A DNA stretch of 64,000 nucleotides from Verrucomicrobiia bacterium (GTDB lineage: Bacteria > Omnitrophota > Omnitrophia > Omnitrophales > Aquincolibacteriaceae): NCBI GenBank assembly GCA_035495615.1, contig DATJFP010000092.1, positions 6,914-70,913 on the forward strand, in the 5' to 3' direction. Below, one piece after another: positions 8,901 to 42,902 of the stretch. The first letter of the stretch is position 1; each line of letters begins with the position of its first letter. The notes below the pieces were generated by a model. The model did no database searches and was not told where the DNA came from. It saw nothing but the letters and a program-made list of their open reading frames with translations. A program made the position numbers and the translations under genes.

Positions 8901-8942
8901 TGTTTCCCATTCTCCTTTAGGATGACGTACCGCCGGTCCGGG

Positions 8943-9080
8943 CGGTTAACCTTCGATCATGTCCCAAACATTAAAAACCATACGAAATACCAGCCGGCCT
9001 CCCGCTACGATCAACGGCCAGAACAAAAAGGTGCGGTAAAGCGCCGGGCCGGGATAAAAATGTTTGCGCCAGGGTTTCAT
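8943..9080 (-). CDS. possible 45-aa hydrophobic micro-protein translationally coupled to wza-like gene
   Basis: My own translation reads MKPWRKHFYPGPALYRTFLFWPLIVAGGRLVFRMVFNVWDMIEG. Its ATG overlaps the upstream TAA stop (TAATG at 9078-9082). It has one predicted TM helix and was not in the ORF track because it is under 60 aa. Confidence 0.3.
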
Positions 9081-10102: not shown

Positions 10103-10130
10103 GGAATCCATCCTCACTTTGTCCGGGAAT

Positions 10131-10325
10131 TTAAATCTCATAAACGGAGTTCACAAGCCTTTCCAGCGCGTCCAGGTCTTCTTGCATGTAAACACGCCAG
10201 CCTTTCCAATCACGCTTGGGCTTTTTGACCTTGCCGGCCTTTTCCCACCGCATGATGGTCTTCGTGGTAACGCCGATCTTTTCCGCGACTTCTGTTATGG
10301 TGTAGCGGCCATTATCTTTCAACAC
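10131..10325 (-). CDS. small excisionase/MerR-type helix-turn-helix (HTH_17) DNA-binding protein
   Basis: 64 aa. YTITEVAEKIGVTTKTIMRWEKAGKV matches the HTH_17/excisionase-family motif. It overlaps the wza-like start by about 10 nt. Confidence 0.65.
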   Translation of the reverse strand: MLKDNGRYTITEVAEKIGVTTKTIMRWEKAGKVKKPKRDWKGWRVYMQEDLDALERLVNSVYEI

Positions 10326-16014: not shown

Positions 16015-16572
16015 TTAGATCCGGTACACTTTGTCGCCCACGGACACGTCGCTCTTGACCTCCAGGCCGATCTCCTCGCCCGGACGCCCCTGGTCGATCG
16101 GAATCCTGTTGATCTGCATGGACTTCACTTTTTGCCTTATCTTACCCGATTTTCCGAGGATCACAATAGAATCCCCAAGGTCGAGCGGCTCCTCCAGCTT
16201 GAGGACCGCCGCGTGGACTTTGGGAAAATAATGCGTCAAGTTGCCCACATAAGTTCCCGGCGCCTCGTCTTTCGGGAGAGCTTTGGCGGAAACCTTTGCG
16301 GGGCGCACCGGTTTGGTCTCAGTCTTCAACTTGGCCTTGGCTTTTACGACAGGCAGCTTTGCCGGCCTTGGGCTGGGCTTGGGCGCGGGCGCCTTCTTCT
16401 TGGGCTTGGAAGCTTTTTTCTGTTTTACGGGACGGGCAGCGGCCCGCCTGGCTTTGGGCCTGGCCTTTTTACGAGGAGCTCTGATCCTGCGCCTCTTTTT
16501 TTTGCGCGGCGGTTTCCCCGACCATAGGGACAAACCGGACAGGAATCGTTTCAATTTTTTTAAAATGCCCAC
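16015..16572 (-). CDS. histone H1-like Lys/Pro/Ala-rich basic N-terminus fused to EF-Tu domain-2-like beta-barrel
   Basis: N-terminus is KKKRRRIRAPRKKARPKARRAAARPVKQKKASKPKKKAPAPKPSPRPAKLPVVKAKAK. C-terminus is GNLTHYFPKVHAAVLKLEEPLDLGDSIVILGKSGKIRQKVKSMQINRIPIDQGRPGEEIGLEV. The start is uncertain because the listed ATG start overlaps the pcm 3' end by about 100 nt. Confidence 0.4.
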   Translation of the reverse strand: MGILKKLKRFLSGLSLWSGKPPRKKKRRRIRAPRKKARPKARRAAARPVKQKKASKPKKKAPAPKPSPRPAKLPVVKAKAKLKTETKPVRPAKVSAKALPKDEAPGTYVGNLTHYFPKVHAAVLKLEEPLDLGDSIVILGKSGKIRQKVKSMQINRIPIDQGRPGEEIGLEVKSDVSVGDKVYRI

Positions 16573-17107: not shown

Positions 17108-17184
17108 GAGGCGGAGGTGTTCTTGAAGCGAAGGATCGGGATCTCGTGTCACAAGTACCTCGGGAGGCCTCCCCCCGGACGGCC

Positions 17185-18228
17185 TCAGGACTCGTCGTTC
17201 AGCAGGCCCTGGGCGTCGCGCTTTTCGATCGCGGAGAGTTTGTGGTGGATCTGGTCGAAGCGTTTCTCGGTCTTGTCGAAAGCCGATTTCGCATTGGACA
17301 GGTGCGCCCCAACCTTTTCGAAATCCGCCAGGCATTTGGCGAAGTCCGTTTCGAGCTGGCCCAGATTTTCGAGAATCAGCTGGGCGGAGCGCTCGATGCG
17401 CAGGCCCTTGAGGCCGCGCACAATGGCCTGGAGGTAAGCATAAAAACTGTTGGGCGAAACCGGGATGACCTTTTTCCGCATCGCGTATTCGGAGAGGCTT
17501 TCGTTCTGGCCTTCATGTTTGATGATGGTTTCGTAGTAGATGTTTTCCGCGGGAATGTACATGAGCGCGAATTCGAAAGTTCCTTCTTCCGGAAGGATGT
17601 ATTTTTCGGCGATGGAATCGATGTGCTTCTTCACGTCCGACGCGAACAGTTTGCGAAGCGACTTTTCTTCGTCGCCCTCCGCGGCGATCACGCGGCGGAA
17701 ATTTTCCAGAGGAAACTTCGCGTCCACCGGCACCATCCCCTGTCCGAGCGTGATGACCGCGTCCACTTTGCTTCCGTTCTGAAAACCGTATTGAAGACAG
17801 AAATGATCGGGCGGAAGGATTTGCGCGAGAAGCTCGCCCAGCATCAGTTCGCCGAGCCCGCCGCGCAGTTTGGGCGAGCGCAGGATGTCCTGCAGCGACG
17901 CGATGTCTTTGCCGATGTCGGACATTTCCTGGGTGGCTTTATGCAGTTCGCCCAGCTTGTGCTGGAGATTGCCGACCGTCTGGGCGTAACCCTGCTGGGA
18001 CGTCTGGAGGAACTTCTGGTTTTCCTTGAAATGCTCGTGGACCTGGCGCTCGAGGCCGAGGCTCTGGTCTTTGAGCGCGGTCCGGAGATCCGCCATTTCC
18101 TTTTGCAGCTGGGATACGACCGCGGCGTTGTCCTGTTTGCCGGCTGCGGTAAAACGGGCCAGGACAAACACAACGGCGCCGAGACAGGCAAGCACAAGCA
18201 GGAAAAGGGCGGCTGCGAGGAAAGTCAT
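17185..18228 (-). CDS. rmuC: DNA recombination protein RmuC
   Basis: N-terminal TM helix, a long coiled coil, and a C-terminal RmuC nuclease-like region (VDAVITLGQGMVPVDAKFP...). Confidence 0.85.
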   Translation of the reverse strand: MTFLAAALFLLVLACLGAVVFVLARFTAAGKQDNAAVVSQLQKEMADLRTALKDQSLGLERQVHEHFKENQKFLQTSQQGYAQTVGNLQHKLGELHKATQEMSDIGKDIASLQDILRSPKLRGGLGELMLGELLAQILPPDHFCLQYGFQNGSKVDAVITLGQGMVPVDAKFPLENFRRVIAAEGDEEKSLRKLFASDVKKHIDSIAEKYILPEEGTFEFALMYIPAENIYYETIIKHEGQNESLSEYAMRKKVIPVSPNSFYAYLQAIVRGLKGLRIERSAQLILENLGQLETDFAKCLADFEKVGAHLSNAKSAFDKTEKRFDQIHHKLSAIEKRDAQGLLNDES

Positions 18229-18312
18229 GCCCGCATTATATCAAGGCGCGGCCGGCGTTTCCAGCTTCAGACTGGAAAAGTTCTCGCCGTCCCGGCCTTA
18301 CCGAGGCCGGGT

Positions 18313-19896
18313 CTACTGGACAAACGTAATGTTGATGTCCTCGAGGTGCATGCTCGGCTCGGAAAACACGTAAATCCGGCTGTTTTTAGTGCTCTCCAGC
18401 TGCTGCAGGGCACGTTTCTCCTGATTCAGCAGGCGCTCGGAAACCGTCGGGTGCACGTACGCATTGACCAGCCTGTTGCTGGAATGCGCCAGGGCCTTGC
18501 GCAGTTCCCGGATGGTCTGGATGGCCATGCTCGTCGGCGATTTGACGATGCCGCGGCCATTGCAATACGGACAGGTCCTGTGAACCGTGCTTTCGTGCGA
18601 AGCCTTGATCCTCTGCCGCGTCATTTCCACGAGGCCGAGCTCGGACATGGGCAGGATGTTGATTTTAGCGCGGTCCGGCCTCACGGCTTCCTTGAAGGCG
18701 CGCATCAGGTTCCGCCGGTTTTCGTGCCGCTCCATGTCGATGAAGTCGATGATCACGATGCCGCCGACGTCCCGCAGCCGGAGCTGCCGGGCAACTTCCC
18801 AGGCCGCTTCCATATTGTTTTTGTAGACGGTTTCCTCGAGATTTCGGGTGCCCGTGAATTTGCCGGTGTTCACGTCGATCGCAACAAGGCTTTCCGTCTG
18901 CTCGATCACGATGTGGCCGCCGGATTTCAGGTACACGTTGCGCTGGAACGTGGCCTCGATCTCTTTTTCGACGTTGAACTTTTCGAAAAGCGATTCGTTG
19001 CCCTTGTACATCTCGACCTTGAGCGTGTGCCCGCCCTGGAGGTAAATCCCGACGAAGCGTTTAACCCGGTGAAACAGGTCTTTGTTGTCCACGACGATCT
19101 TGTCGGTTTCATCGGTCAGGTGGTCGCGGATCACGCGTTCGACGAGATCCAGCTCCTGATGGATGAGGTTCGGAGCGCGCCCCTCGTTCATTCCCTTTTC
19201 AATGCGCGCCCATTGACGGGTCAAATACCGGATGTCGCGCGCGAATTCTTTTTCGCTCTTACCTTCACCGGCCGTGCGCACGATGAAGCCGACGCCCTTG
19301 GGCAGCTCCATGGATTCGAAAATCTGTCGGATGCGATCCCGCTCTTTCCGGTCTTCGATCCGGCGTGAAATACCGACCTTGGATTCGCCGGGCATCATCA
19401 CCAAATAACGCGCGGGAATGGAAAAGTGAGTGGTCAGGCGGGGCCCCTTGTTTCGGATGGCCTCCTTGACAACCTGCACGATGACTTCCTGGCCGATTTT
19501 CAGGACTTCGTCGATGGACTTCATCCGCTCGCGCCCCTGATGGTGGCGGCGGCGCTTCTTCTGCGGACGGCCATTGCCTTCCGCTTCGTCCTCGTCGTCT
19601 TCTTCATCATCAATATCGCCGGAGTCGCCGTCGAGTTCCGGATCCAGAGGGTTTTGCAAGGCGTCGGCGACATAGAGGAACCCGTCTTTCTTGGTTCCCA
19701 GGTCCACGAAGGCGGCGCCGATGCCCTTGATGACGGTCTTCACCTTTCCTTTATAAATATTCCCGAACATTCTTCCGTGGTCGGAGCGCTCCATGTAGAG
19801 CTCTTCCAGACGGCCGTCTTCGAGAATGGCGACCCTTTTTTCATTGGCTTCCTGACTGATGAGAATTTCCCGTTTCATAAAACAAGTTCCTTTCAA
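18313..19896 (-). CDS. rng: ribonuclease G/E family endoribonuclease
   Basis: S1 domain (GNIYKGKV...AAFVDLG) and an RNase E/G catalytic domain (VAIDVNTGKF, GGIVIIDFIDM). An acidic insert is present. The start may be the internal MKREILIS. Confidence 0.9.
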   Translation of the reverse strand: MKGTCFMKREILISQEANEKRVAILEDGRLEELYMERSDHGRMFGNIYKGKVKTVIKGIGAAFVDLGTKKDGFLYVADALQNPLDPELDGDSGDIDDEEDDEDEAEGNGRPQKKRRRHHQGRERMKSIDEVLKIGQEVIVQVVKEAIRNKGPRLTTHFSIPARYLVMMPGESKVGISRRIEDRKERDRIRQIFESMELPKGVGFIVRTAGEGKSEKEFARDIRYLTRQWARIEKGMNEGRAPNLIHQELDLVERVIRDHLTDETDKIVVDNKDLFHRVKRFVGIYLQGGHTLKVEMYKGNESLFEKFNVEKEIEATFQRNVYLKSGGHIVIEQTESLVAIDVNTGKFTGTRNLEETVYKNNMEAAWEVARQLRLRDVGGIVIIDFIDMERHENRRNLMRAFKEAVRPDRAKINILPMSELGLVEMTRQRIKASHESTVHRTCPYCNGRGIVKSPTSMAIQTIRELRKALAHSSNRLVNAYVHPTVSERLLNQEKRALQQLESTKNSRIYVFSEPSMHLEDINITFVQ

Positions 19897-20033: not shown

Positions 20034-21680
20034 TCACTGAGCCGCGGCCGCCGGAGGCTGAGCCGCTGTCCCCGCTTCGGGTTGAGCGTTTTGTGCGGGC
20101 GGAACCGTAGTTTGCCCGCTTTGCATGCTTGCTGTTTCGTCTGCTGCGCCTGAGGCCTGGGCGGCGGAGCTCGACGCGGGCGCATGCGCCGCAGCGCTGC
20201 CCACGTTTTGTTTCCCCGCGACCCTTTGGCCGGCCGGTTGACCTTCCGTATCCACCATGGTCACCGTGACAAAAAATAGTGTTTCGACTTTTTTATTAGC
20301 ATCTCCTGCCGTTTGACGTTTTGATCTGAAAGCTTTACCTACCAGGGGTAGATCTGCCAAATAAGGTACCTTCGATTCATTCATCGCGACATTGTCCGTG
20401 AGCAGACCGCCGATGGCGATGGTTTCACCGCTGCGGATCAGCACCTGCGTGATAGCCTTTGTCACGTTAAAGCTTGGAATTTGGAACTCACCGAAATCAA
20501 TGTTGGCCCCGGTCGAGCTGACCTCGGGGTTGAGGTCCACAAGAATTTCTTCTTCGGAATTGATGTGAGGCGTCACTTTCAGGACAACGCCGACCTGGCG
20601 GTAATAAAAACCGCTGATCTCGACGCTGCCCGTCGTTTCGTTGCGCTCGAAAGTGGGAAGAGGAATATCGCTTCCGACCTGGATGTTCGCGGACTGGTTG
20701 TTCAAGACCACGATCCTGGGATTGGAAACAACTTTGGTGTTGCTGCGGGTCTTCAGCATCTGGAGGATGGCGCTGAAACCTGAAAAATCCAGCGTGCCGT
20801 AATTATAGGTGGTGCTGGCGGAGGCTTCCGGTTCCGGAAAGCCGCGAGGATCGTTCGGATTTGCAGCGGCAGTGCCCGGGTCCGTATTGAGAACCGGGAA
20901 ATACTGCTGCAGCGCATTACCGATGTTACCGCCGAACAAATTATCGGTTTTGCTGGCAAACGGAAAAGTCGTGGGTCGGCTCGAGCCCGAGAGCTTGAGA
21001 AGCTGCGTCGCGGAATCGCCGCCGGTACGCCATTCGACGCCGAGGTTTTCCGCGGTCCCGACGTCGGTTTTGACGACCTTGGAATCGATGTACGCCTGCG
21101 GCGTCACCTTATCCAGTTTTGTCACGACTTCTTCGATGCTGTAAAGGTTGGTGGGAATGTCCGTGATGACGAGCATATTCGTGCGCTCCGCCACCTTGAT
21201 GCGTCCGCGTTCGGTCAGCATGTCTTTGACCGCTTCCATGACTTCCGCGGCCTTCGAGTAATTCAGGATGAACGTCTTGGTGACAAGCGGTTCGGCCGCG
21301 AGATTTTCCCGCGTGGTCACGCGGATGATATTGCCGTCCTTCTCGAACACGTAGCCGTAGGTCCGAAGCACCACCTCAAGCGCCTTCTTCCAGGGCACGT
21401 TTTCCAGGCGAATAGTCACGGTCCCCTGCACTTCCGGGCCCGCCACGATATTGACGCCGCTTTTGAGGCTCATGACGCGGAGCACCGTATTAATGTCCGC
21501 GTCTTTGAAATCAAGCGTCACCGTGGTCATCGCTTCTTCATTATTATTGGCCTCAACCGCGGGCTGGCTGACGGGCTGCGCCGCAGGCTGCTGGGCATAG
21601 ACCGTCTGAGAAACCAGGGTCAAAAAGGAGGCGAGGAGGGCGACGAACGGCTTATTTCTTTTGGGGGCTTTTAATATCAT
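20034..21680 (-). CDS. pilQ: type IV pilus secretin
   Basis: Signal peptide, an AMIN-like N-terminus, N0/N1 domains (VTLDFKDADINTVLRVM), and a secretin domain (RIVVLNNQSANIQVG...ETIAIGGL...VPYLADLPLVGKAFRS). An Ala/Gln/Pro-rich C-terminal tail is also present. Confidence 0.9.
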   Translation of the reverse strand: MILKAPKRNKPFVALLASFLTLVSQTVYAQQPAAQPVSQPAVEANNNEEAMTTVTLDFKDADINTVLRVMSLKSGVNIVAGPEVQGTVTIRLENVPWKKALEVVLRTYGYVFEKDGNIIRVTTRENLAAEPLVTKTFILNYSKAAEVMEAVKDMLTERGRIKVAERTNMLVITDIPTNLYSIEEVVTKLDKVTPQAYIDSKVVKTDVGTAENLGVEWRTGGDSATQLLKLSGSSRPTTFPFASKTDNLFGGNIGNALQQYFPVLNTDPGTAAANPNDPRGFPEPEASASTTYNYGTLDFSGFSAILQMLKTRSNTKVVSNPRIVVLNNQSANIQVGSDIPLPTFERNETTGSVEISGFYYRQVGVVLKVTPHINSEEEILVDLNPEVSSTGANIDFGEFQIPSFNVTKAITQVLIRSGETIAIGGLLTDNVAMNESKVPYLADLPLVGKAFRSKRQTAGDANKKVETLFFVTVTMVDTEGQPAGQRVAGKQNVGSAAAHAPASSSAAQASGAADETASMQSGQTTVPPAQNAQPEAGTAAQPPAAAAQ

Positions 21681-22086
21681 TCTTGGCTTCGCCGGGTTGT
21701 CCGGTTATTTCTTCTCTTAACCATATCGTTTTTTCTTCGTCTTCCTGGGCGAGGATGATGCGGTCCTTGAAAATCTGGAGGAGCGTCGCCTCGCCTATTT
21801 TATCTCCGGCGTGATAAACATCGCCGTTGATGAGCACCATCGAACCGCCTTGCGGATCGATGATAATGCCTTCGATCTGGAACGCGGCTGCTTTTGGCTG
21901 GCGGGTGATGATCCCGTGAGGCCCGACTAAAGGGATGAAGGGATCTCTCCGGCCTTCGCTATGATATTGAACATTTTCAGCCAATGCAACCGGAAAAACT
22001 GACGCGGTCATGAGGACAAAGAGCCAGGCGGCTCGAAACGCCGCTTTGTATTCCCGCTTAAAGCATCGGCTTCTCTTGAAAAACAT
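21652..22086 (-). CDS. pilP: type IV pilus assembly lipoprotein-like PilP
   Basis: Small protein with the RRDPF motif, positioned between pilO and pilQ. Confidence 0.55.
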   Translation of the reverse strand: MFFKRSRCFKREYKAAFRAAWLFVLMTASVFPVALAENVQYHSEGRRDPFIPLVGPHGIITRQPKAAAFQIEGIIIDPQGGSMVLINGDVYHAGDKIGEATLLQIFKDRIILAQEDEEKTIWLREEITGQPGEAKNDIKSPQKK

Positions 22087-22116: not shown

Positions 22117-22740
22117 TTAGGTGCCGGCTGCGGCGGCGGCCTGAGGCTCCTGCAGCGATACGGCCGAAAGCGTCAGGTGGACCATGTGCTTTTCCGGCGT
22201 GTCCTCTTCCGGCGTGATCGTGAAGTCTTCCACCCGCAGGATCTTGTCGTAGGATTCCACGCGGCTGATGAAGTCGGCGATCTGATGGTAGCCGCCTTCC
22301 ACGGTGAAATCAAAATAATCAGCTTTGTACTTCGCGTCAAAAGGCTTCGGAAAATCCGTTTTGACCTCCTGCGGCGAGGACGAAACGATCTTGATCTGGC
22401 TTTCGTCCGCAAGTCTTGCGATCTTTCCCAAAAGCAGCGATGTCTCCCCCGGAAAATAAAGGCGGCCTTTGACGTCTTTGATGAATTTTTCCGATGCTTC
22501 TTTTTCCTGAGTCCACACCGTTTTTTTCCGTCGCAGCGTCTGCAGCTGGATGATCTGCCCCTGCACGGCCGCGATCTGAGTCTTGACCATGGGCCGCTTG
22601 ATCCAGGCGGGCCAGACAAGAAAATACGTCAGCAAGAGCGCCCCGGCCGCTCCGGCCCCGATCATCGTCCAGGTCTTCTTATCGATGGATTTGGCCAGCA
22701 CGAGAAAGTCCTGAGGCGTCATCTGGTTCAGCGGCTTCAT
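22117..22740 (-). CDS. pilO: type IV pilus assembly protein PilO
   Basis: Single TM helix plus a periplasmic domain. The start was set at the ATG at 22740, which overlaps the pilN stop (ATGA). Confidence 0.6.
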   Translation of the reverse strand: MKPLNQMTPQDFLVLAKSIDKKTWTMIGAGAAGALLLTYFLVWPAWIKRPMVKTQIAAVQGQIIQLQTLRRKKTVWTQEKEASEKFIKDVKGRLYFPGETSLLLGKIARLADESQIKIVSSSPQEVKTDFPKPFDAKYKADYFDFTVEGGYHQIADFISRVESYDKILRVEDFTITPEEDTPEKHMVHLTLSAVSLQEPQAAAAAGT

Positions 22741-23348
22741 GCTTTTTTCGCCTCCCCTGTGTCCCATTGAAAAATCGCCGTGAACTGCGTGAGCTCGACG
22801 TTTTCCACGATTTGACGCGACGTCGTGAGCGAAAGCTTGGTCTCGGGCATCAGCTCTTTGAGCTGGTGCAGGTAAAGTTCGATGGATTCGATGCTGGATT
22901 TTTCCTTAGTCGCCAGGCAAAGCCCCTGGATCACGAGATCCCGCTTCTGGGCCTGATGTTTCAGGCTCACGCCCGTCAGCCACCCGCTCTCCGGCAGATT
23001 GCCGCTCAGCCACTCGAGGACCTGCGTGAGGGGCCGCTGCGTCGTGACGAACCGCTCCAAAAAATCCTTTTCGGTCTTGAGGACGTTTTCCACTTCGTTT
23101 TTCAGGTTGTTGAGGACCTGGGCCTGCGGCTGGACTTCCTTCCACTCCGCGTCCAGCTTTTTGAGACGCGCGTTGCTGCCCAGATAATCGAAATAAAAGA
23201 AGACGGTCAGGAGCGCCAGGCAGGCGCCTGCGGCGATGCCGATCTTGACGAGCGGCAGCTGGGTTGTCTGCGCTTTTTCTTTGACGCGGAATTCTTCGGG
23301 TAAAAGGTTGATTTCCAGCATCACGGGGCCTTCTAGTTCCTCAAACAA
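22737..23348 (-). CDS. pilN: type IV pilus assembly protein PilN
   Basis: INLLPEE N-terminal motif, one TM helix and a coiled coil. The start may be the internal MLEINLLPEE. Confidence 0.65.
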   Translation of the reverse strand: MFEELEGPVMLEINLLPEEFRVKEKAQTTQLPLVKIGIAAGACLALLTVFFYFDYLGSNARLKKLDAEWKEVQPQAQVLNNLKNEVENVLKTEKDFLERFVTTQRPLTQVLEWLSGNLPESGWLTGVSLKHQAQKRDLVIQGLCLATKEKSSIESIELYLHQLKELMPETKLSLTTSRQIVENVELTQFTAIFQWDTGEAKKA

Positions 23349-24457
23349 AGTCCCAGCGCCACGGGAATCAGGCGCTGATTTTTTTCAAAAAGAGCCCGGT
23401 CCATGCCCGGCGCCAGGATCAGCTTGTCGGCCTTCATCAATTCGGACGGGATGCCGAGCTGCTGCTGGAGGATGCTTCCGACGACCTGGAGGTCCCCTCC
23501 GCCTCCGCCCAGGTAAATCTTCTGCACCGGGCGCGCGTCCGTCACTTGTCCGAGATAATAATCGAGCGTCACTTTCAGGTCGGAGCACAACGTCTCCACG
23601 GCTTCCACCAGGACTTGCTTGCTTTCCGGCGTGGCCGCACTTCCGCCTTCCAGAGTCTTCTCCGCGTCTTCCTGCGTCATCCCGAGCTTCCTCCGCAGGC
23701 GTTTGGCAATGTCTTTGCCCCCGAACGAAATGTCCCGGATGAAACGCGGCTTACCATCCAGCACGATGCTCAGGCTGGAAATTTCGTCCCCGATGTCCAG
23801 GAACGCTATGGCCCCGGTCTTGAATTCTTCGGGGTGCAGGTATTCGAGCGCGTTCAGCGAGGCAAGGATATCCACGTCGATCAGCCCGATCGAGATGTCG
23901 GCGTCCTGGAAATCCTTGATGAGCGGGTAGATCTCCTCTTTTTTGACCGCAATCAAAAGCAGGTCGAGCAGGACTGCCGCATTGTCAGACTTCCGCTCCC
24001 CTAATATATGGAAGTCCAGGATAACTTCGTCGAGTTTGAACGGGATGTAGTTCTCCGCCTCGTAAGCGATGGCGCTGCGGAGTTCGGCCGGGCTCATTTT
24101 AGGAAACTGGATAAAACGGATGATGACGCTCTGCCCTTTCACGGAGATATGGACTTTTTCGGGCGAGATTCCCGCGAACGCTTCTTTCAGCGCATCAGCG
24201 CTCTTTCCCGACTCTTTCGGACGACGCACGATTTTGAAGTTCTGCACGGAGATGCCCGCGGCACTCTTTTCGAGGTCCAGCACCAGGATCTTCGAGGCCC
24301 CGTAATCGCAGGCGACGGCCCTGACGGGCCCTTCTTTTGCCGCGGCACCCGATTTCATGCCGCCTAATTTACCGAGCAAAGGGCCGGCCTTTTCCTGGAG
24401 CTTCTGCAGGACCGGTTGAATTTTGTCGAGTTTCGGAAGGTCGAACTTCATGTTCAC
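23333..24457 (-). CDS. pilM: type IV pilus assembly protein PilM (actin-like ATPase fold)
   Basis: 374 aa with the FtsA/PilM-like architecture (GGGGDLQVVGSILQQQLGIP). Confidence 0.75.
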   Translation of the reverse strand: MNMKFDLPKLDKIQPVLQKLQEKAGPLLGKLGGMKSGAAAKEGPVRAVACDYGASKILVLDLEKSAAGISVQNFKIVRRPKESGKSADALKEAFAGISPEKVHISVKGQSVIIRFIQFPKMSPAELRSAIAYEAENYIPFKLDEVILDFHILGERKSDNAAVLLDLLLIAVKKEEIYPLIKDFQDADISIGLIDVDILASLNALEYLHPEEFKTGAIAFLDIGDEISSLSIVLDGKPRFIRDISFGGKDIAKRLRRKLGMTQEDAEKTLEGGSAATPESKQVLVEAVETLCSDLKVTLDYYLGQVTDARPVQKIYLGGGGGDLQVVGSILQQQLGIPSELMKADKLILAPGMDRALFEKNQRLIPVALGLCLRN

Positions 24458-24603: not shown

Positions 24604-25095
24604 CTAGCCAGCGATCGCGGTACCACCAGCGCAACCCGCAGCGGCGCCAGCAGGAGCACCTGCACCGTTCACCGAACCGACGATCACACCCGTCTGGTCA
24701 ACGCAATAGGTGTTGGTCGCAGTCTGGTTGGCCACAACCGGCGTGGAAAGCAGCGAGAACGTGTTCGGGGTACCCGCACCACCGCCCGCATAAGCGAGGT
24801 TGAAGCCGTGTTTACCACCGGCAGCGCCCCAAGACGCGTCCAGATAAGCCGGAACAGCGCCCGTCAACGCGGCAACGTTCGCCGCATAGGCCGGAGGATT
24901 TTGTGCAGCGCGAAAGCTTTCATTTGAAGAGCTAAAAGCACGAAGGTCCGTCTTCATGGCGCCTTCGTTAGCGTTCATCCTAGCACGTAGCAAGTTCGGA
25001 ATCGCGATCGCGGCGAGCAGGCCGATGATGGCCACCACGATCATAATTTCTACAAGCGTAAAACCTTTTTGGTTCTTCCTTATCATGCGTATCAT
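24604..25095 (-). CDS. pilA: type IVa major pilin / pseudopilin (copy 1)
   Basis: Class III signal QKG|FTLVEIMIVVAIIGLLAAIAIPNL with Glu at +5. Has a C-terminal Cys pair (YCVDQ...AAGCAGG). GGAGG lies 6 nt upstream of the ATG. Confidence 0.85.
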   Translation of the reverse strand: MIRMIRKNQKGFTLVEIMIVVAIIGLLAAIAIPNLLRARMNANEGAMKTDLRAFSSSNESFRAAQNPPAYAANVAALTGAVPAYLDASWGAAGGKHGFNLAYAGGGAGTPNTFSLLSTPVVANQTATNTYCVDQTGVIVGSVNGAGAPAGAAAGCAGGTAIAG

Positions 25096-25333: not shown

Positions 25334-25825
25334 TTAGCCGGAAATGGCCGTACCGCCCGCACAACCGGCCGCCGCTCCGGCAGGAGCGCCCGCGCCGTTT
25401 ACCGATCCTACGATCACGCCCGTCTGGTCCACACAATACGTGTTCGTCGCTGTCTGGTTGGCAACGACAGGCGTCGAAAGCAGCGAATACGAATCCGGAG
25501 TACCCGCTCCTCCGCCGGCATAGGCCAGGTTAAAGCCATGCTTTCCGGTAGCCGCTCCCCACGAAGCATCCAGATAAGCAGGCACCGCACCGGTAAGAGC
25601 GGCCACGTTTGCCGCAAAAGCCGGCGGATTCTGTGCCGCCTGGAAGCTGGTGTTGGCAGAGCTGAAAGCCCGAAGGTCCGTCTTCATGGCACCTTCATTG
25701 GCATTCATCCTTGCACGAAGCAGGTTCGGAATCGCAATCGCGGCCAAAAGGCCGATAATGGCAACCACGATCATGATTTCGACAAGCGTAAAACCTTTTT
25801 GATTCTTCTTTGTAATAAAATTCAT
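25334..25825 (-). CDS. pilA: type IVa major pilin / pseudopilin (copy 2, ~94% identical to copy 1)
   Basis: Same prepilin leader and C-terminus as copy 1. The start was set at the ATG at 25825, which has GGAGG at 5-nt spacing. The ORF extends to 25837. Confidence 0.85.
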   Translation of the reverse strand: MNFITKKNQKGFTLVEIMIVVAIIGLLAAIAIPNLLRARMNANEGAMKTDLRAFSSANTSFQAAQNPPAFAANVAALTGAVPAYLDASWGAATGKHGFNLAYAGGGAGTPDSYSLLSTPVVANQTATNTYCVDQTGVIVGSVNGAGAPAGAAAGCAGGTAISG

Positions 25826-25958
25826 ACATGCCTCCATACAATCAGATTTACTGCTAATTCAACTGTAAGTTATTCCTACCAAAACTTCAAATCCTCACAA
25901 GACTAAATTTCGTTAAAATCTCAGTTTTTTTCATCTCGTTAAAAACTCTTTCCGCTTC

Positions 25959-27188
25959 CTATTTAATATGCTGCGTCAGCGTCAGGATCGGCAGGAAGAG
26001 CGCGATCACGATGCCGCCGATGACCACCCCGAGAAACAGGATGATCAAGGGTTCGATCAGGGAAGTCAGGCCGTCCACCGCCGCATCGACCTGCGTGTCG
26101 TAAAAATCGGCAATCTTCATGAGCATCTCTTCCAATTCGCCCGTCTCTTCGCCGACGGCGATCATGCGCACGACCATCTGGGGGAAAACGTCGCTTTTGA
26201 GGAGCTGTCCTGAGATACTTTCCCCTTTCTTGACCGAATCCATCAGCGAGGTGATCACCAGCTCAATGCGCCTGTTGCCCGACGTCTTCGCGACGATTTC
26301 CAGGGACTGCAGGATGGAAACGCCGCTTCGGACAAGGGTGGCGAGGGTCCTCGAAAATTTACTGACGGCCACTTTCAGGAGGATGGGCCCGAAAATCGGC
26401 ATTTTGATGATGAAAGAGTCAAAGGCCAATCGTCCTGCCGGCAGCTTGATGAGCTGCGTGAAAAGGAAGATCGCGCCGCCGATACCCCCCAGGATCAGCA
26501 GCCAGTTGGCGGCCATGAAACGGCTGATGTCGATCAGCGTCTGCGTGATGACCGGCAATTTCGCGTCCAGACCTTCGAAGATCTCCGCGAATTTCGGGAT
26601 AACGAAGGTCATCATGCCGAAGGTGATCAAAAAGGCGATGATGGTGACCGACAGCGGATACATCATCGCGGACTTCACCTTCTTCTGCAGGGCGCTCGTT
26701 TTTTCGAGGTAGTTGGCGACGCGGTCGAGAATCTCTTCCAGGCTTCCGCTGGTTTCACCGGCGCGCACCATGTTGATGAAGAGAGTCGAGAACACCTTCG
26801 AATGTTTCTGCATGGCCTCGGAAAAACTTTTGCCGCTCTGCACGTCCTGGTGCATGGTTTTCAGGATGACGCGGAACCGGTCTTTCTCCACCTGCTCGCC
26901 GAGAATGTCCAGCGCCTGGATCAACGGGATGCCCGCGGACACCAGCGTGGCCATCTGGCGGGAAAAGACGACGAGGTCGTCCAGCTTGACGCTGCCGCTC
27001 TTTCCCTTTCTCTTGGCCGGGCCTTTGGAGACGTTGAAAACTTTCTTCGCCTGGATCTCGTTCACCCGGACGATGATGAGGCCCTGGGAACGCAGCGTGC
27101 CGACAAGCGTGCCCACGTCCGGAGCTTCCTGAATCCCGCTCTGATCTTTGCCTGTTCTGTCTTTGACCTGATACTCGAAGGTTGGCAT
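25959..27188 (-). CDS. pilC: type IV pilus assembly platform protein PilC (GspF family)
   Basis: Two T2SSF repeats (SAGIPLIQALDIL and RSGVSILQSLEIV) and three TM helices. Confidence 0.9.
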   Translation of the reverse strand: MPTFEYQVKDRTGKDQSGIQEAPDVGTLVGTLRSQGLIIVRVNEIQAKKVFNVSKGPAKRKGKSGSVKLDDLVVFSRQMATLVSAGIPLIQALDILGEQVEKDRFRVILKTMHQDVQSGKSFSEAMQKHSKVFSTLFINMVRAGETSGSLEEILDRVANYLEKTSALQKKVKSAMMYPLSVTIIAFLITFGMMTFVIPKFAEIFEGLDAKLPVITQTLIDISRFMAANWLLILGGIGGAIFLFTQLIKLPAGRLAFDSFIIKMPIFGPILLKVAVSKFSRTLATLVRSGVSILQSLEIVAKTSGNRRIELVITSLMDSVKKGESISGQLLKSDVFPQMVVRMIAVGEETGELEEMLMKIADFYDTQVDAAVDGLTSLIEPLIILFLGVVIGGIVIALFLPILTLTQHIK

Positions 27189-27192
27189 AAGC

Positions 27193-28902
27193 TTAGTGGT
27201 CCGAAGCGGTCACCCGCAGGACTTCCTCCATGGTGGTTTGGCCGAGTTTGAAAAGAGAGAAGGCATTTTCAAACAGCGTCTCCATTCCCTTTTTAACGGC
27301 AGCCTCGTGAATAACATTGCTGGATTTTCTTTGAATGATCAATTCCCTGATTTCATTGTCGATCGTGAGAACCTCGGTTGTGCCGAGGCGCCCGTAGTAA
27401 CCGGTGTTGTTGCATTTCGCGCAGCCCTTGCCTTTAAAGCTCTTAATGTCCTTCATGTCTTCGGGTTTCATGTGGCAGCGCCGCATCACGTCTTCCGGAA
27501 CTTCGCACGGCGCTTTGCAGAACTGGCAGATTTTTTTCATGAGCCGCTGCGCGGCCACCCCGACCAGCGAGGACGCGATGAGGAAAGGCTCCACACCCAT
27601 GTCGATGAGGCGCGTGACGGCGCCGGCCGCGCTATTGGTGTGCAGCGTGCTGAAGACAAGATGGCCGGTCAACGCGGCTTTGACCGCGATGTCCGCGGTT
27701 TCGCCGTCGCGGATTTCGCCGACCAGCACGATGTCCGGGCTTTGGCGCAAAAGCGAGCGCAGCCCCGCGGCAAACGTGAGCCCGACTTCGGGGATCACGC
27801 CGGTCTGGCTTATGCCTTCCACCTGGTATTCGACGGGATCTTCGATGGTCATGATGTTCCGGTCGGCCGTGTTCAACGTCCCCAGGATCGTGTAGAGCGT
27901 CGTGGATTTTCCGCTGCCCGTGGGGCCGGTCACGAGCATCATGCCGTAAGGATGCTTGATGATCTCGGCGATCCTGGACGTGGGCCTTTCCGTGAAGCCC
28001 AGTTTGTCGAGGCCGGATTTCAAACCCGATTTGTCCAGCACGCGGAGCACCATTTTCTCTCCGAAATACGTCGGCAGGATGGAAACGCGGAAATCCACCT
28101 CCGTGTTGTGAACCTTGATGCGGAAGCGCCCGTCCTGCGGCACGCGCTTTTCCGTGATGTCCAGCTGGGAAATGATTTTGACTCGGGCGACCACGGCGGG
28201 ATAAACGTCCTTGGCATGCGCGAACGATTCGTGAAGCGCGCCGTCGATGCGGTAGCGCACGCGGAATTCTTTTTCGTACGGCTCGAAATGGATGTCCGAA
28301 GCGCGAGACTTCAGCGCGCCGTCCAGGATCACGTTCACCATGCGCACGACCGGGGCATTGTCGATCTTGCCCCCGGAGCCCTTGTCCTCATCTTTGTTGT
28401 CTTCCTTGATGACTTCGAGGCTGTCTTCGTCGATGCCTTCGATGATTTCATCCAGGTTGGCGCTTTCGGAATAGTACTGCTCGATCAGGCCCGAAATCAT
28501 TTTGGGAGGCGCGAGAACCAGAGCCACGTCGCAGCTGAGAAGCCCTTTGATGTCGTCTTTCAGCATGAGATCGAAAGGATTGCTGGTCGCCAGCGTAACA
28601 AGTTTTTTAATGCGCGACAGCGGGATGACGCGATAACGTTCCGCGATCTTGGCCGGAAACGATTTGATGATTTCTTTGGGGATACGGTAAGCCGGAAGAT
28701 TCAGGAGGGGGATCCCGAGATGGTTGCTCATGAAATCGATCATCTCGTCGTCCTTCATCATCTCTTTTTCGGTGATCAGCTGCAAAACCGTCTTTTTTTC
28801 TTTCCGTGCAAGAGGCATCAGCTCTTTCAACTTTTCCGCGTCCACCTTTTTTTCCTCGACGAGGAGCTCGGCCAGTTTGTCCGCGGAAAAATGAGGCGTC
28901 AT
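27193..28902 (-). CDS. pilB: type IV pilus assembly ATPase PilB/GspE family (copy 1)
   Basis: GspE N-domain, Walker A LVTGPTGSGKSTT, Asp box, His box, and a tetra-Cys zinc motif (CQFCK...CAKC). The start was moved to the ATG at 28902 (MTPHF), which is preceded by GGGAGGGAAGG. Confidence 0.9.
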   Translation of the reverse strand: MTPHFSADKLAELLVEEKKVDAEKLKELMPLARKEKKTVLQLITEKEMMKDDEMIDFMSNHLGIPLLNLPAYRIPKEIIKSFPAKIAERYRVIPLSRIKKLVTLATSNPFDLMLKDDIKGLLSCDVALVLAPPKMISGLIEQYYSESANLDEIIEGIDEDSLEVIKEDNKDEDKGSGGKIDNAPVVRMVNVILDGALKSRASDIHFEPYEKEFRVRYRIDGALHESFAHAKDVYPAVVARVKIISQLDITEKRVPQDGRFRIKVHNTEVDFRVSILPTYFGEKMVLRVLDKSGLKSGLDKLGFTERPTSRIAEIIKHPYGMMLVTGPTGSGKSTTLYTILGTLNTADRNIMTIEDPVEYQVEGISQTGVIPEVGLTFAAGLRSLLRQSPDIVLVGEIRDGETADIAVKAALTGHLVFSTLHTNSAAGAVTRLIDMGVEPFLIASSLVGVAAQRLMKKICQFCKAPCEVPEDVMRRCHMKPEDMKDIKSFKGKGCAKCNNTGYYGRLGTTEVLTIDNEIRELIIQRKSSNVIHEAAVKKGMETLFENAFSLFKLGQTTMEEVLRVTASDH

Positions 28903-30662
28903 GCGGCCTTCCCTCCCGTTTTCGCCTGGTCCGCGGCGGTCACGCGGTAAACCTCTTCCAGCGACGTCTCCCCTTCCGAGGCCTTGCGCACGGCGCATTC
29001 GCGGAGCGTGGTCATGCCCTGCTCACGCCCCTGCGCCTTGATGTCGTCCGAAGAAGCGGCCTTTGCAATCATCGAAATCACCTGCGGCGTCATTTCCAGG
29101 ATTTCCGTGATCACGGTGCGGCCGGCGTAACCCGAATTGCGGCAGCGCTGGCAGCCTTTCGGCTGAAAAAAGGTGTGGGGCTTCGAAGGATCCAGGCCCA
29201 GGTTTTTCAATGTTTCGGCATCGACTTCATAAGGCTGGCGGCATTTGAAGCACAGGCGGCGCACCAGGCGCTGGGCGGAAATCATGATCACAGTCGATGC
29301 GATGAGAAATGGTTCCAGCCCCATGTTCATCATGCGCGTGACGGAGCTCGCGGCATCGTTGGTGTGCAGCGTGCTGAGCACGAGGTGGCCGGTGAGCGCG
29401 GCCTTGACCGCGATGTCCAGCGTGTCGTTGTCGCGGATTTCACCAATGAGGATGATGTCCGGATCCTGGCGCAGGATCGAACGCAGCGCCGCCGGAAAAG
29501 TCAGCCCTACGGTGTCGCGGACGTTCACCTGGTTGATGCCGATCATCTGGTATTCCACGGGGTCTTCGACCGTTGTGATGTTCACTTCGGGATCGTCCAG
29601 GTATTTGAGCACAGAGTAAAGCGTCGTGGTTTTGCCGCTGCCCGTAGGGCCCGTCACCAGGATCATGCCGTGCGGCCGCTGCGCGGAATCTTTGATGATC
29701 TGCTGCTCGCGGTCGTTGAACCCCAGCTTGCTGATGTCGTGGCTCTGTGACGACGTGTCCAGAATACGCAAGCACACCTTCTCGCCGAAGCTCGTCGGCA
29801 AAATCGAAATGCGCATGTCCACCTGGCGTTTTTCGGCTTTGACCTTGATGCGGCCGTCCTGCGGGACCCGGTGTTCGGCAATGTCGAGGTTGCTCATGAC
29901 CTTGATCCTGGAAACGATGGCCGAGGCCAGCGACTTGGGCGGCCGGATGACTTCTTCCAGAAGCCCGTCGACGCGCGCGCGGACGCGCACGTGGTTTTCC
30001 CAGGGCTCGATGAAAATGTCGCTGGCGTGCCGCTTGATGCCCTCGATCAAGAGCCGGTTCACGAGCTTGATGACCGGCGTTTCGAACGCTTCCTTCATCA
30101 GGTCGGAAGTCTGGACGGCGGGGCCATCCTGCTCGATCTCGATGGCCTTCACGATGTCGTCGAGCTCCTCGCTGTAATTTTTCTCCGAGCCCCCGGCCGC
30201 CGGCGCCTCGCCCGGCTTGGCTTCGAAGTAGTACTTCTGCACGTATTTTTTCAACACGCTGTATTGCGCGACCGCGGCCTTGATGCGCAGGCCCGTGATG
30301 CTGTGGAGCTCATCGATGGCCTTCAGGTTCAGCGGATTGGCGAGCGCCACGGTCAACGTGTTCTCCAGGCGCGTGATCGGCAGAGCGTTGTACTTCTCCG
30401 CGATTTTGGCGGGAATCAGCTTGATGAGCTCCGGCTCGATGACGAAGATCGCGGGATTGACCGATGTCATGGCGTACTCCTGGCTGAGTACTTTGACGAG
30501 CGCGCGCTCGTCGCATTTGCCCAGCCGCAGGAGAACGTCGAGGAGCGGCTCTTTGGTTTCTTCGTGCTCGCGAAGGGCCTGATGGATGTCGCCGGGCGCC
30601 GCGACGTTACCCTTGATCAGGCTATTTTGAAGCTCGGCGTAAATATTTTCTTTTCCCGGCAT
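28899..30662 (-). CDS. PilB/GspE/MshE-family secretion ATPase (copy 2, tandem paralog)
   Basis: Walker A LVTGPTGSGKTTT and a tetra-Cys motif (CFKCR...CQRC), with the same architecture as copy 1. It overlaps copy 1 by 4 nt. Confidence 0.85.
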   Translation of the reverse strand: MPGKENIYAELQNSLIKGNVAAPGDIHQALREHEETKEPLLDVLLRLGKCDERALVKVLSQEYAMTSVNPAIFVIEPELIKLIPAKIAEKYNALPITRLENTLTVALANPLNLKAIDELHSITGLRIKAAVAQYSVLKKYVQKYYFEAKPGEAPAAGGSEKNYSEELDDIVKAIEIEQDGPAVQTSDLMKEAFETPVIKLVNRLLIEGIKRHASDIFIEPWENHVRVRARVDGLLEEVIRPPKSLASAIVSRIKVMSNLDIAEHRVPQDGRIKVKAEKRQVDMRISILPTSFGEKVCLRILDTSSQSHDISKLGFNDREQQIIKDSAQRPHGMILVTGPTGSGKTTTLYSVLKYLDDPEVNITTVEDPVEYQMIGINQVNVRDTVGLTFPAALRSILRQDPDIILIGEIRDNDTLDIAVKAALTGHLVLSTLHTNDAASSVTRMMNMGLEPFLIASTVIMISAQRLVRRLCFKCRQPYEVDAETLKNLGLDPSKPHTFFQPKGCQRCRNSGYAGRTVITEILEMTPQVISMIAKAASSDDIKAQGREQGMTTLRECAVRKASEGETSLEEVYRVTAADQAKTGGKAA

Positions 30663-30664
30663 TC

Positions 30665-31147
30665 CTAACCCGCTTTTCTCTTTTCGACTTTCGGGGTTTG
30701 TTTGGAGTAGGCAAGGTCCAGCATGTTCAAAATCTCGCTCGCGGTGGAAACAAAGACCTGGGGTTTGAGCTTCAAACGCTGGCGGAGGTCTTCGATGACG
30801 GTGGCATTCAAGGGATCGCTGACCGCCACAAAGACCCGGGTTTCGTCGTAGTCAATGACCACAAGCACCGCATGGCGGCAAAATTCTTCGGTCAGCAGAT
30901 GAACGGCTTCCATGTTGACCGCGTAATTCACCAGAGGCAGGTACGGCATTCCGAGCTGACGGCACAGCGCGCTGACGAGATCCTCTTCGCTCAGATAGCC
31001 GAGCTGGATGAGGATCTGGCCGATAAGGCCGCCCTCTTTTTTCTGGTAGCAAAGCGCTTCTTCCAGGTTCTCCTGCGTGAGGAGCCCGTCTTCAATAAGC
31101 AGTTCTCCCAAACGGCGTTTGGGTTTCTCCCTGGGGACAGTATCCAT
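30665..31147 (-). CDS. stand-alone MshEN-type c-di-GMP-binding domain + GspE N-terminal (T2SSE_N) domain protein, no ATPase domain
   Basis: Tandem 24-aa motifs RLGELLIEDGLLTQENLEEALCYQ and LIGQILIQLGYLSEEDLVSALCRQ separated by a 5-aa spacer (KKEGG). This is the canonical MshEN RLGxx(L)(V/I)xxG(I/F)(L/V)xxxxLxxxLxxQ x2 arrangement. Confidence 0.7.
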   Translation of the reverse strand: MDTVPREKPKRRLGELLIEDGLLTQENLEEALCYQKKEGGLIGQILIQLGYLSEEDLVSALCRQLGMPYLPLVNYAVNMEAVHLLTEEFCRHAVLVVIDYDETRVFVAVSDPLNATVIEDLRQRLKLKPQVFVSTASEILNMLDLAYSKQTPKVEKRKAG

Positions 31148-33715: not shown

Positions 33716-34723
33716 TTATCCCAAAATGAGCTTGAGGATCAGCCAGCTGTAAATGCCCGCCCCGAGATCGTCGAGCATGATGCCCCAGAAGCCGTGGATC
33801 TTTTCCAGGCGGCGAAGCGGGAACGGCTTCAAGATGTCGAAAAAACGGAAAAGCAGGAAGCCGAGCCCCAGCGACATCCAGCCCAGGGGCAGGCCGGCAA
33901 GCGCGAGCATCATGCCGCAGGTCTCGTCCACGACCACGTACGACGGGTCTTCGTGTTCCTTCAATCCAAGGCGCCGTACGCCCCACCACCCCGCGCAAAA
34001 AATAATCACAAAGGAACCGGCGTAGACCGCGGGATGGACGCTGCAAAGGATGATGAGCGGGATGGCAAGCAGCGAACCCCACGTGCCGGCGGGTCCGGGA
34101 AAAAGCCCCACGCCCATGGCGCTTGTGTATTTGGCAAAAAAAGGAGTAAGGCAAAGCTTGTGGTTGGAAATCATGAACGTGATTCCCGAGACGATCGTCA
34201 TGATCACGGCAGCAACCACAAAGAAAAACATCACGTGCCGGAGGATGGCATTCTCATGATAATCGCTCACCATCTGGTAAATAAGAGAGAACGACACCGC
34301 CGCGATCTGGAGGCCCATCTTGAATTTGCCGAGCTTTTCCGCGCCGATGGCTTTGCCTTCGAGCAGCCAGCCTGTCCGGCAAAACGTGATGATGATTTCG
34401 CGGGCAAAAACCGGAACCACCCACCAAAAGGAATAATAGCCGAGCGCGGCAAAGGCGGACAAAGGCCCGAGGATGAGGACCTTGTCGGCCAGAGGATCCA
34501 CGTACTTTCCAGTATCACTGACGACACCCATCTTGCGCGCAAGCAGTCCGTCCCATTGGTCGGTAAAGGCGGCAAAGCCGTAAATCCAGGACGCAAGCTG
34601 ATGGGCTTGAGGTTCGTGGCGGAAAATAAAATACGGAAGGATACAGCCCAGAACGGCTCTCAAGGCGCTCAGGGCATTAGGGAGATGCGAAAAACCCGGC
34701 TTAGATTTCACCCAAAAGGTCAT
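33716..34723 (-). CDS. fused CDP-diacylglycerol--glycerol-3-phosphate 3-phosphatidyltransferase / phosphatidylglycerophosphatase A (PgsA-PgpA fusion)
   Basis: N-terminal half has the CDP-alcohol phosphatidyltransferase motif DQWDGLLARKMGVVSDTGKYVDPLADK (DG..AR x8 G x3 D x3 D). C-terminal half has PgpA motifs PAGTWGSLLAIP, DETCGMMLAL and FRFFDILKPFP. Confidence 0.8.
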   Translation of the reverse strand: MTFWVKSKPGFSHLPNALSALRAVLGCILPYFIFRHEPQAHQLASWIYGFAAFTDQWDGLLARKMGVVSDTGKYVDPLADKVLILGPLSAFAALGYYSFWWVVPVFAREIIITFCRTGWLLEGKAIGAEKLGKFKMGLQIAAVSFSLIYQMVSDYHENAILRHVMFFFVVAAVIMTIVSGITFMISNHKLCLTPFFAKYTSAMGVGLFPGPAGTWGSLLAIPLIILCSVHPAVYAGSFVIIFCAGWWGVRRLGLKEHEDPSYVVVDETCGMMLALAGLPLGWMSLGLGFLLFRFFDILKPFPLRRLEKIHGFWGIMLDDLGAGIYSWLILKLILG

Positions 34724-41632: not shown

Positions 41633-41788
41633 TCCTAGAAAATCCTCCAACTTGGACTTTAACGATGATGGATGTGGCCGGGGATAAACCGGCGGAATAA
41701 CTGCCGGAATAATGCCATAAAATACCAAAAAAGGCGGGGAAATACCATCACAAGGTTAGAAAAAAAGGAAAAAAGGTGTGAATGAAAA

Positions 41789-42844: not shown

Positions 42845-42902
42845 GGGGCTAAGGCCTCTTCTGCGACTTACGAGTTTGGATCATTCCTTCCGGTCCTTTG
42901 AT

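Follow-up and report, generated by a model that had tools for sequence, protein, structure and literature searches.

A tandem pair of PilB-type ATPases within a single type IVa pilus gene cluster, conserved across the sampled Omnitrophota

Extension of type IV pili (T4P) is usually credited to a single PilB hexamer, and the PilB/TfpB pair of Acinetobacter has raised the questions of how two motors share one platform and how common such an arrangement is. A locus that bears on both questions lies in a 64,000-nucleotide (nt) stretch of DNA from an Omnitrophota bacterium (deposited as Verrucomicrobiia bacterium, assembly GCA_035495615.1, contig DATJFP010000092.1, positions 6,914 to 70,913 of the forward strand), which is referred to below as the window. 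Here a type IVa pilus (T4aP) gene cluster carries two adjacent, overlapping genes for full-length PilB-type ATPases, which we call A and B. Why does one pilus cluster keep two assembly ATPases? Our tentative reading, to which we assign a probability of about 0.45, is that A and B are two active extension motors of one T4aP machine, which divide the labour between them, are produced in a fixed ratio and receive a cyclic di-GMP (c-di-GMP) input in trans through M, a small protein encoded directly upstream. The pair is probably a second, independent case of a pilus machine run by two assembly motors.

The genes of this module lie on the minus strand in the order M, 2-nt gap, A, 4-nt overlap, B, 4-nt gap, PilC. 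The longest open reading frame (ORF) for B spans 27193..28998; we set the start of B at the internal ATG at 28902 because this ATG overlaps the TGA of A as ATGA and is preceded by a Shine-Dalgarno-like run, GGGAGGGAAGG. The overlap indicates that translation of A and B is likely coupled. The initial annotation of this DNA had described two adjacent GspE-family ATPases with a 4-nt overlap, each with an N-terminal domain, a Walker A motif and a tetracysteine zinc motif, and this description is borne out by the ORF coordinates (587 and 569 amino acids, aa), the ATGA overlap, Pfam matches and motif inspection. Both proteins match Pfam T2SSE (E 1e-136 and 1e-138 for A and B) with an additional N-terminal MshEN/T2SSE_N match in each. 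They share an architecture of N1 (T2SSE_N/MshEN), N2 and C-terminal domain (CTD) that aligns end to end with positions 1-563 of the NCBIfam model TIGR02538. Walker A reads GPTGSGKTT in A and GPTGSGKST in B, and each protein has an Asp box, Walker B with the catalytic Glu, a His box, Arg fingers and a CxxC...CxxC zinc site. In an alignment of 26 A and 27 B orthologues the catalytic and zinc-site residues are invariant. The four Cys are found in every A and B orthologue, and are absent in 19 of 19 PilT proteins. The initial annotation had allowed that one copy might be a pseudogene, and this is contradicted by the retention of every catalytic and zinc-site residue in the orthologues of both.

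In order to place the two ATPases we compared them with solved structures, with NCBIfam models and with relatives in a tree. By these comparisons A and B are predicted to be extension-type ATPases, neither PilT-like, nor TfpB-like, nor clear GspE. Among solved structures, both are closest to Geobacter and Myxococcus PilB (495-521 bits), followed by Thermus PilF and then Vibrio EpsE, with PilT at about 110 bits. The top NCBIfam model is the PilB equivalog TIGR02538, which gives 617-645 bits for A and 634-655 bits for B in four genomes, just under its cutoff of 675.65. The GspE model TIGR02533 comes second (568-601 bits, below its cutoff of 630.25), and the PilT/PilU model TIGR01420 yields 180-203 bits against a cutoff of 319. 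The TfpB model NF053534, with a cutoff of 850, yields 478 bits for A and 458 bits for B of the window and 454-471 bits in other genomes. The phylogeny that the initial annotation had called for was run as a neighbor-joining (NJ) tree on 328 core columns, with PilB-like proteins of other phyla, E. coli GspE and HofB, PilT as the outgroup and 60 bootstrap replicates; E. coli GspE and HofB are the functionally named references in this tree, while chains from the PDB were compared by score. A and B form separate clades, each recovered in 60/60 replicates and distant from PilT, and E. coli GspE falls outside the group that A and B form with the other PilB-like proteins. The NJ distance is 0.72 between A and B, 0.76 between A and Legionella PilB, 0.72 between A and Aminicenantes PilB, and 0.73 between B and E. 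coli GspE; the distance from A or B to PilT is 1.6, as for any PilB. A recent duplication or a pseudogene is ruled out by the overall A/B identity of 43%, the 60/60 clades and the invariant catalytic residues.

The history of the pair was followed through related loci drawn from three long contigs, GTDB species representatives and one more distant match. A and B are found together in all 26 related Omnitrophota loci, and neither gene is ever found alone. The 119 next-best relatives of A have 60-82% identity, and each of those that bear an organism name is labelled Omnitrophota or Omnitrophica. Against A, A-type proteins reach 750-950 bits, and against B about 440 bits; the pattern is reversed for B-type proteins. 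The start/stop overlap recurs at each of the 27 A/B junctions (22 with ATGA, 4 with the ATG 8 nt upstream, and 1 with GTG). Every locus with context has the same conserved block, in which genes for MiaB-like, PgsA-PgpA, CinA, LigT and HhH-GPD proteins are followed by M, A, B, PilC, pilin(s), PilM-N-O-P and the secretin, and then by RNase G. Both ATPases are more conserved than the flanking housekeeping genes, and mean divergence is 0.18 within the A clade and 0.17 within the B clade. Because of the 60/60 clades, the equal divergence within them and conservation above that of the housekeeping genes, we date the pair to the phylum-level splits and see both members under equally strong constraint.

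A pilus cluster with two motors and no obvious PilT invites the question of whether one of them retracts the pilus. The initial annotation had seen neither PilT nor a prepilin peptidase in the window, and had suggested that one ATPase copy might have taken over a retraction or regulatory role. Both absences hold: a phmmer search that used A and B as queries and covered every window ORF of 90 aa or more found no other T2SSE-family protein, and therefore no PilT, and Pfam scans of the remaining window ORFs found no Peptidase_A24 prepilin peptidase. PilT was also not found in the approximately 17 kb around each related locus (approximately 8 kb from the ATPase pair). Additionally, B sits between pilB and pilC, the slot of pilT in other phyla (in Aminicenantes and Acidobacteriota loci pilT comes after pilB), and its His box reads HLVF, as in PilT. 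These observations would fit a B (or A) that became the retraction motor in place of PilT, but such a conversion is hardly likely at all. Both A and B keep N1 and the zinc site, and the six-residue insertion in pore loop 3 that marks PilT (PMC5424180) is present in 19/19 PilT proteins and in 0/26 A and 0/26 B orthologues; the scores with TIGR01420 and the distance to PilT given above point the same way. Retraction is probably encoded elsewhere in the genome, because the KEGG Orthology (KO) counts of Seymour et al. 2023 include K02669 (pilT) and K02654 (pilD), together with K02652 (pilB) and K02454 (gspE), in the two Omnitrophota genomes whose complete lists were read, 58 (order B26-G9) and 231 (Velamenicoccia). 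Finally, a second PilB can coexist with PilT, since loci L044 (1865-6394) and L046 (6022-10551) contain an operon of the order gatA-gatB-PilB-like(572)-PilT(365)-PilB-like(589)-TrxB-like, with no pilC or pilM adjacent.

If both ATPases are assembly motors, they could still drive two different filaments, and the initial annotation had proposed one motor for each of the two pilin paralogues of the window. The composition of the cluster does not support this proposal. PilC is followed by two pilins, PilM, a protein in the PilN position, PilO, a small protein in the PilP position and a secretin, and Pfam and NCBIfam scans found no minor pseudopilin, GspL or GspC genes in the cluster. We classify the cluster as T4aP-type because it has PilM instead of GspL/GspC and is devoid of minor pseudopilins. 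PilC is present in a single copy in every related locus, and so is the PilMNOP-secretin set; with one platform and one scaffold, the locus gives no indication of two separate filaments or machines. The two pilins of the window are 91% identical, and 17/21 related loci have a single pilin while both ATPases are kept in all of them. KGFTLVEIMIVVAIIGLLAAIAIPNL of the pilin is invariant across loci, and nearly all pilins of 21 loci have an identical mature N-terminus, FTLVEIMIVVAIIGLLAAIAIPNL. The two pilins of the window represent a recent lineage-specific duplication. Of the initial interpretation, the two intact extension-type ATPases stand; one motor per pilin is not supported, and the retraction role fails all the sequence tests that were applied.

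A variant of the two-filament view assigns one ATPase to the surface pilus and the other to a short pseudopilus, which would act through the same PilC and secretin in secretion resembling that of the type II secretion system (T2SS), possibly of giant-gene products. B is equally close to E. coli GspE (0.73) and to A (0.72), and giant ORFs lie a few kb upstream in the window and in L002 and L003, two of the related loci. Earlier work has also described T2SS-like loci close to giant genes. The KO list of genome 231 may also be read in this way, as it contains both pilB and gspE, and gspE and gspA are the only T2SS KOs seen in it. For the latter reason, KofamScan probably labels one member of the pair as "GspE". 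We find the pseudopilus very unlikely, since the cluster has no GspC, GspL or minor pseudopilins and encodes a single pilin type, and since the N-termini of A and B are of the PilB/MshE type and their GspE scores are below cutoff. The T2SS-like locus described by West-Roberts et al. contains rcpC and a rotamase gene and lies upstream of giant genes; the T4aP cluster is found on the other side, downstream of the giant ORF, and lacks both rcpC and the rotamase gene, and therefore appears to be a different locus. The initial annotation had also named the case that one copy is clearly a T2SS GspE with a gsp operon of its own elsewhere; for B, this was rejected at this locus on the basis of the TIGR02533 score below cutoff, the presence of PilM instead of GspL/GspC, and the lack of gspC/L and minor pseudopilins.

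We then compared A and B with each other. Identity between them is 14% in the N-terminal helical part, 25% in N1, 48% in N2 and 63% in the CTD core. They are fixed differently at 45 positions, and at otherwise conserved sites A is derived at 10 and B at 13. One such site lies in the (A/G)SD(I/L)H segment of the N2 domain, where Phe replaces His at residue 217 of A in 26/26 A orthologues. The same His is kept in 105/105 other proteins (27/27 B, 57/57 other PilB-like proteins, E. coli GspE and HofB, and 19/19 PilT). Our literature search on the role of this His gave nothing relevant. Further changes specific to A are A208G, Y221W, V297C, A415L and L444M, while those specific to B include GKT to GKS in Walker A, DPD to SPD, and K560L. 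Fixed changes specific to each paralogue argue against simple redundancy. They bear on an explanation in which A and B are alternative, largely interchangeable motors for different conditions that do not truly divide the labour, one of them perhaps constitutive and the other gated by c-di-GMP via M. It is consistent with this explanation that A and B are each full PilB-type enzymes, that the operon has a dedicated c-di-GMP-motif protein, and that in Acinetobacter baylyi an inhibitor hits PilB and not TfpB (PMC8213720). However, A and B are predicted to be co-transcribed and translationally coupled, which would make separate expression impossible, redundant copies are seldom equally constrained throughout a phylum, and each copy has its own fixed changes at conserved sites. 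We therefore regard interchangeable motors as distinctly unlikely.

If A and B work together, they might do so within one ring, co-assembled as a mixed hexamer (A3B3 or A2B4) that would be an obligate heteromeric T4P extension ATPase. Co-variation of evolutionary rates is relevant here. Over 21 loci, the matrix of pairwise distances for A is correlated with that for B at r = 0.99. When the signal of three flanking housekeeping genes is removed by partial correlation, A-B remains at 0.84, the highest value of all pilus gene pairs; the partial correlation is 0.74 for A-PilM, 0.73 for B-PilM, 0.70 for PilM-PilN, which is a known contact, and approximately 0.6 for A or B with PilC. Besides this top value, the mixed hexamer is favored by the overlap in 27/27 junctions, as such coupling favors a fixed stoichiometry like that within one complex, and by the fact that A and B are never found apart. 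It is also favored by the substitutions of A at superfamily-invariant N2 sites (H217F, A208G, Y221W, V297C), because the N2 domain is the main inter-chain contact in PilB hexamers, where it meets the CTD of the neighboring chain (PMC5424180). On the other hand, both A and B keep all catalytic residues, whereas obligate heteromers often let one subunit decay. Characterized PilB and GspE motors are homohexamers and, to our knowledge, so are the PilT and PilU motors in all characterized cases. A strictly alternating ring would presumably also break the C2 symmetry of the PilB cycle (PMC5424180). The mixed hexamer is an unlikely but credible explanation, and the strongest of the rivals to our reading. 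In a broader form the same idea holds that A and B make up an obligate two-subunit extension motor, either a mixed A/B hexamer or two hexamers in a permanent complex, with the c-di-GMP sensor split off as M. We consider this form improbable but still plausible; if true, the type IV filament superfamily would gain its first heteromeric motor, present phylum-wide in ultra-small predators or parasites, and the A-specific loss of the N2 His would mark an asymmetric subunit interface.

The third gene of the module, absent from the account given in the initial annotation, encodes M, a stand-alone MshEN domain. M matches Pfam MshEN at 54 bits and the NCBIfam model NF053729 (c-di-GMP_motif) at 66 bits against a cutoff of 38. 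Its best solved-structure matches are the GSPII domains of Thermus PilF and the MshEN domain of V. cholerae, 5htl (E 9e-19). An orthologue of M lies upstream of A in 25 other loci, and NF053729 passes its cutoff in M of five genomes (59-66 bits). The same model scores 20.5 bits on A of the window, below cutoff, and has no match in B of the window, in three further A or in three further B orthologues. The c-di-GMP receptor form of MshEN is defined by two tandem 24-residue motifs, RLGxx(L/V/I)(L/V/I)xxG(L/V/I)(L/V/I)xxxxLxxxLxxQ (PMC5013675). The published relaxed form of this motif is carried by 24/26 M and by none of the 26 A or 27 B orthologues. The motif-like stretches of M are RRLGELLIEDGLLTQENLEEALCYQ and LIGQILIQLGYLSEEDLVSALCRQ; motif I fits the relaxed pattern in 24/26 orthologues, while motif II departs from it, in the window copy at the first residue only and in the orthologue consensus also with the central Gly replaced. 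A regulatory role for one of the ATPases, the other half of the suggestion in the initial annotation, may fit with this upstream c-di-GMP-motif protein.

The sequences establish the structure of the genes, the integrity of the catalytic sites, the age and conservation of the pair, the sharing of a single machine and the lack of PilT features; we infer that A and B act jointly on this machine, with a division of labour and c-di-GMP control via M. Both would be active PilB-type motors working on one PilC, one PilM-N-O-P-secretin scaffold and one kind of pilin. A single, translationally coupled M-A-B-PilC transcript would yield A and B at a fixed ratio, and the work of assembly could be split between them as in PilB/TfpB, for example into initiation and processive extension. 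The most likely form of this arrangement would be two hexamers docking on a shared PilM/PilC base, either one after the other or in cooperation, while M would supply the c-di-GMP input that the N-termini of A and B no longer receive. Several observations weigh against our interpretation. The A-B rate correlation is inflated and can only be suggestive, because paralogues have a rate profile in common and the pairwise distances depend on one another. A and B were recovered as sisters in only 21/60 NJ replicates, so one copy could have come by transfer with a different original role. Motif II of most M orthologues departs from the published relaxed motif, and binding of c-di-GMP by M is therefore not assured. 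A mixed A/B hexamer accounts for the coupling and the strict co-occurrence no less well than separate hexamers do. Lastly, the function of any Omnitrophota pilus motor is a prediction from sequence.

Among known systems, the Omnitrophota arrangement would work most like PilB/TfpB, although it is not of the TfpB family. In A. baylyi, a single T4aP requires PilB together with the phylogenetically distinct TfpB (Ellison et al. 2021, PMC8213720; reviewed in PMC11656802); the proposal is that TfpB starts extension and PilB carries it on processively, and the choice between separate and mixed hexamers is an open question there (PMC8213720, PMC11656802). The resemblance is that two distinct, full-length, catalytically intact PilB-type proteins would serve one T4aP machine, that divergence between the two motors is about that of PilB from GspE or MshE, and that a small protein regulator acts at the level of the motor (CpiA there, M as proposed here). 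Unlike in A. baylyi, where tfpB is not syntenic with pilB/pilC, the Omnitrophota A and B genes are adjacent and overlapping, with pilC directly after them. Moreover, neither A nor B is a TfpB orthologue, the pair is kept across all sampled Omnitrophota loci and not in one genus, and the two-motor function is a prediction in Omnitrophota. The concept of two extension motors is already known; what is new here is a pair that is tandem, coupled, adjacent to pilC, preceded by M and phylum-wide as sampled.

Other systems share single aspects of this design. PilT/PilU of Pseudomonas, Vibrio and Acinetobacter are likewise adjacent paralogous hexameric motors of the same pilus machine, of which the accessory one depends on the primary one (PMC11656802), but they are retraction-type proteins of about 350-380 aa that have the pore-loop-3 insertion and no N1 or zinc site, and in all of these respects A and B are the opposite. 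More than one PilB-type protein per genome is also known as PilB1/PilB2 in Saccharibacteria and Clostridium perfringens and from the PilB-PilC pairs of haloarchaea; in all of these organisms, each ATPase has its own PilC (and PilM/N/O) and filament (bioRxiv 10.1101/2024.11.25.624915), whereas here platform and pilin are shared. L044 and L046 also encode two full-length PilB-type proteins in one operon, but with PilT between them and no adjacent pilC/pilM, and those proteins do not group with A or B in the NJ tree. With regard to regulation, M is close in sequence to Thermus thermophilus PilF and V. cholerae MshE, and control of an extension motor by c-di-GMP via MshEN is the logic proposed here. 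In PilF and MshE, however, the sensor domain is part of the motor polypeptide (in three copies in PilF), whereas here it is a separate protein of 160 aa and the motif is lost from the N-termini of A and B. The Xanthomonas sensor is a degenerate GGDEF-EAL protein with a PilZ adaptor; unlike M it has no MshEN domain, and it serves a single PilB. This PilB-PilZ-FimX system resembles our proposal in that a separate protein senses c-di-GMP and the signal is relayed to the N-terminal region of PilB (PMC8389850).

The Omnitrophota literature that we searched reports T4aP clusters in nearly all Omnitrophota genomes, and T2SS-like loci near giant genes, with no mention of the double ATPase. Expression of T4aP has been reported for V. 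archaeovorus (PMC10066038). Members of the phylum are believed to attach to other cells and to prey on them, and the cluster is among the most conserved surface machines beside giant genes. The pair would offer a second, evolutionarily independent example of two extension motors on one platform, more tightly built than that of Acinetobacter, and the question of separate or mixed hexamers becomes directly testable with recombinant proteins. There is also a consequence for annotation, as KO and hidden Markov model (HMM) pipelines probably assign one member of the pair to "PilB" and the other to "GspE", which gives the false impression of a T2SS.

Table 1. Features of the T4aP cluster, with positions in the window.
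Feature	Position	Strand	Evidence and remarks
Protein M, stand-alone MshEN domain, 160 aa, predicted c-di-GMP receptor or adaptor	30665..31147	-	Stop 2 nt before the start of A
ATPase A, PilB-type T4aP extension ATPase (predicted), more derived paralogue	28899..30662	-	587 aa, ATG start; Pfam, NCBIfam, motifs
ATGA start/stop overlap A/B	28899..28902	-	ATG of B on TGA of A
ATPase B, PilB-type extension ATPase (predicted)	27193..28902	-	569 aa; Pfam, NCBIfam, motifs
PilC/GspF platform protein, 409 aa, sole copy in the cluster	25959..27188	-	Pfam T2SSF twice (E 6e-70); NCBIfam PilC/GspF models
Type IV pilin, copy 1	25334..25837	-	Pfam N_methyl
Type IV pilin, copy 2	24604..25095	-	91% identical to copy 1, tandem duplicate
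PilM, actin-like cytoplasmic ring protein	23333..24457	-	Pfam PilM_2 (E 2e-42); TIGR01175 150 bits, cutoff 133
PilN-like protein, 203 aa, by position only	22737..23348	-	No Pfam match; weak match to the PilN-like part of the Amuc_1101 family; position kept in all loci
PilO/GspM-like protein	22117..22767	-	Pfam PilO, 33 bits
Small protein in the PilP position, 144 aa, function suggested by position	21652..22086	-	Weak T2SSB/T2SSC matches only; position kept in related loci
Secretin, PilQ/GspD-type	20034..21680	-	Pfam Secretin, Secretin_N, STN, GspD N0

Several other features of the window were recorded. A giant ORF (44552-63982, minus strand) of more than 6476 aa, which runs off the end of the window, lies approximately 8.5 kb upstream of the conserved block. 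The ORF has a GC content of 0.61-0.66, compared with 0.55-0.58 in the rest of the window, and a strongly negative AT skew; the C-terminal 2000 aa of its product have no Pfam match. It agrees with the giant genes reported from Omnitrophota (bioRxiv 10.1101/2023.11.21.568195), and in L002 and L003 giant ORFs of 7363 aa and at least 4711 aa occupy the same relative position, directly upstream of the block. Between the giant ORF and the housekeeping block, genes at 41789-43517 (minus strand) encode a histidine kinase of 351 aa and a response regulator in which an N-terminal HTH_17/MerR-like domain precedes the receiver.

A 740-aa ORF at 17146-19368 (plus strand), antisense to the RmuC and RNase G genes and with no Pfam match, is almost certainly a spurious long ORF typical of GC-rich DNA. 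Two coding-strand ORFs, at 461-1342 (minus strand, 293 aa) and 16015-16572 (minus strand, 185 aa), have no Pfam family. The region 5827-10141 (minus strand) carries an exopolysaccharide (EPS) export set, composed of Poly_export/SLBB, Wzz/GNVR chain-length, AAA_22 ATPase (281 aa, with a weak T2SSE match) and ParA/MinD-like P-loop proteins. It resembles EPS loci of the PEP-CTERM type, and genes for GlmS, an epimerase and UDP-glucose dehydrogenase are found upstream of it. Two gene fusions were also observed on the minus strand. The first, at 38765-41728, joins transaldolase and phosphoglucose isomerase in a protein of 987 aa, and the second, at 33716-34723, joins a CDP-alcohol phosphatidyltransferase (PgsA-like) and PgpA in a protein of 335 aa that is kept in related loci.

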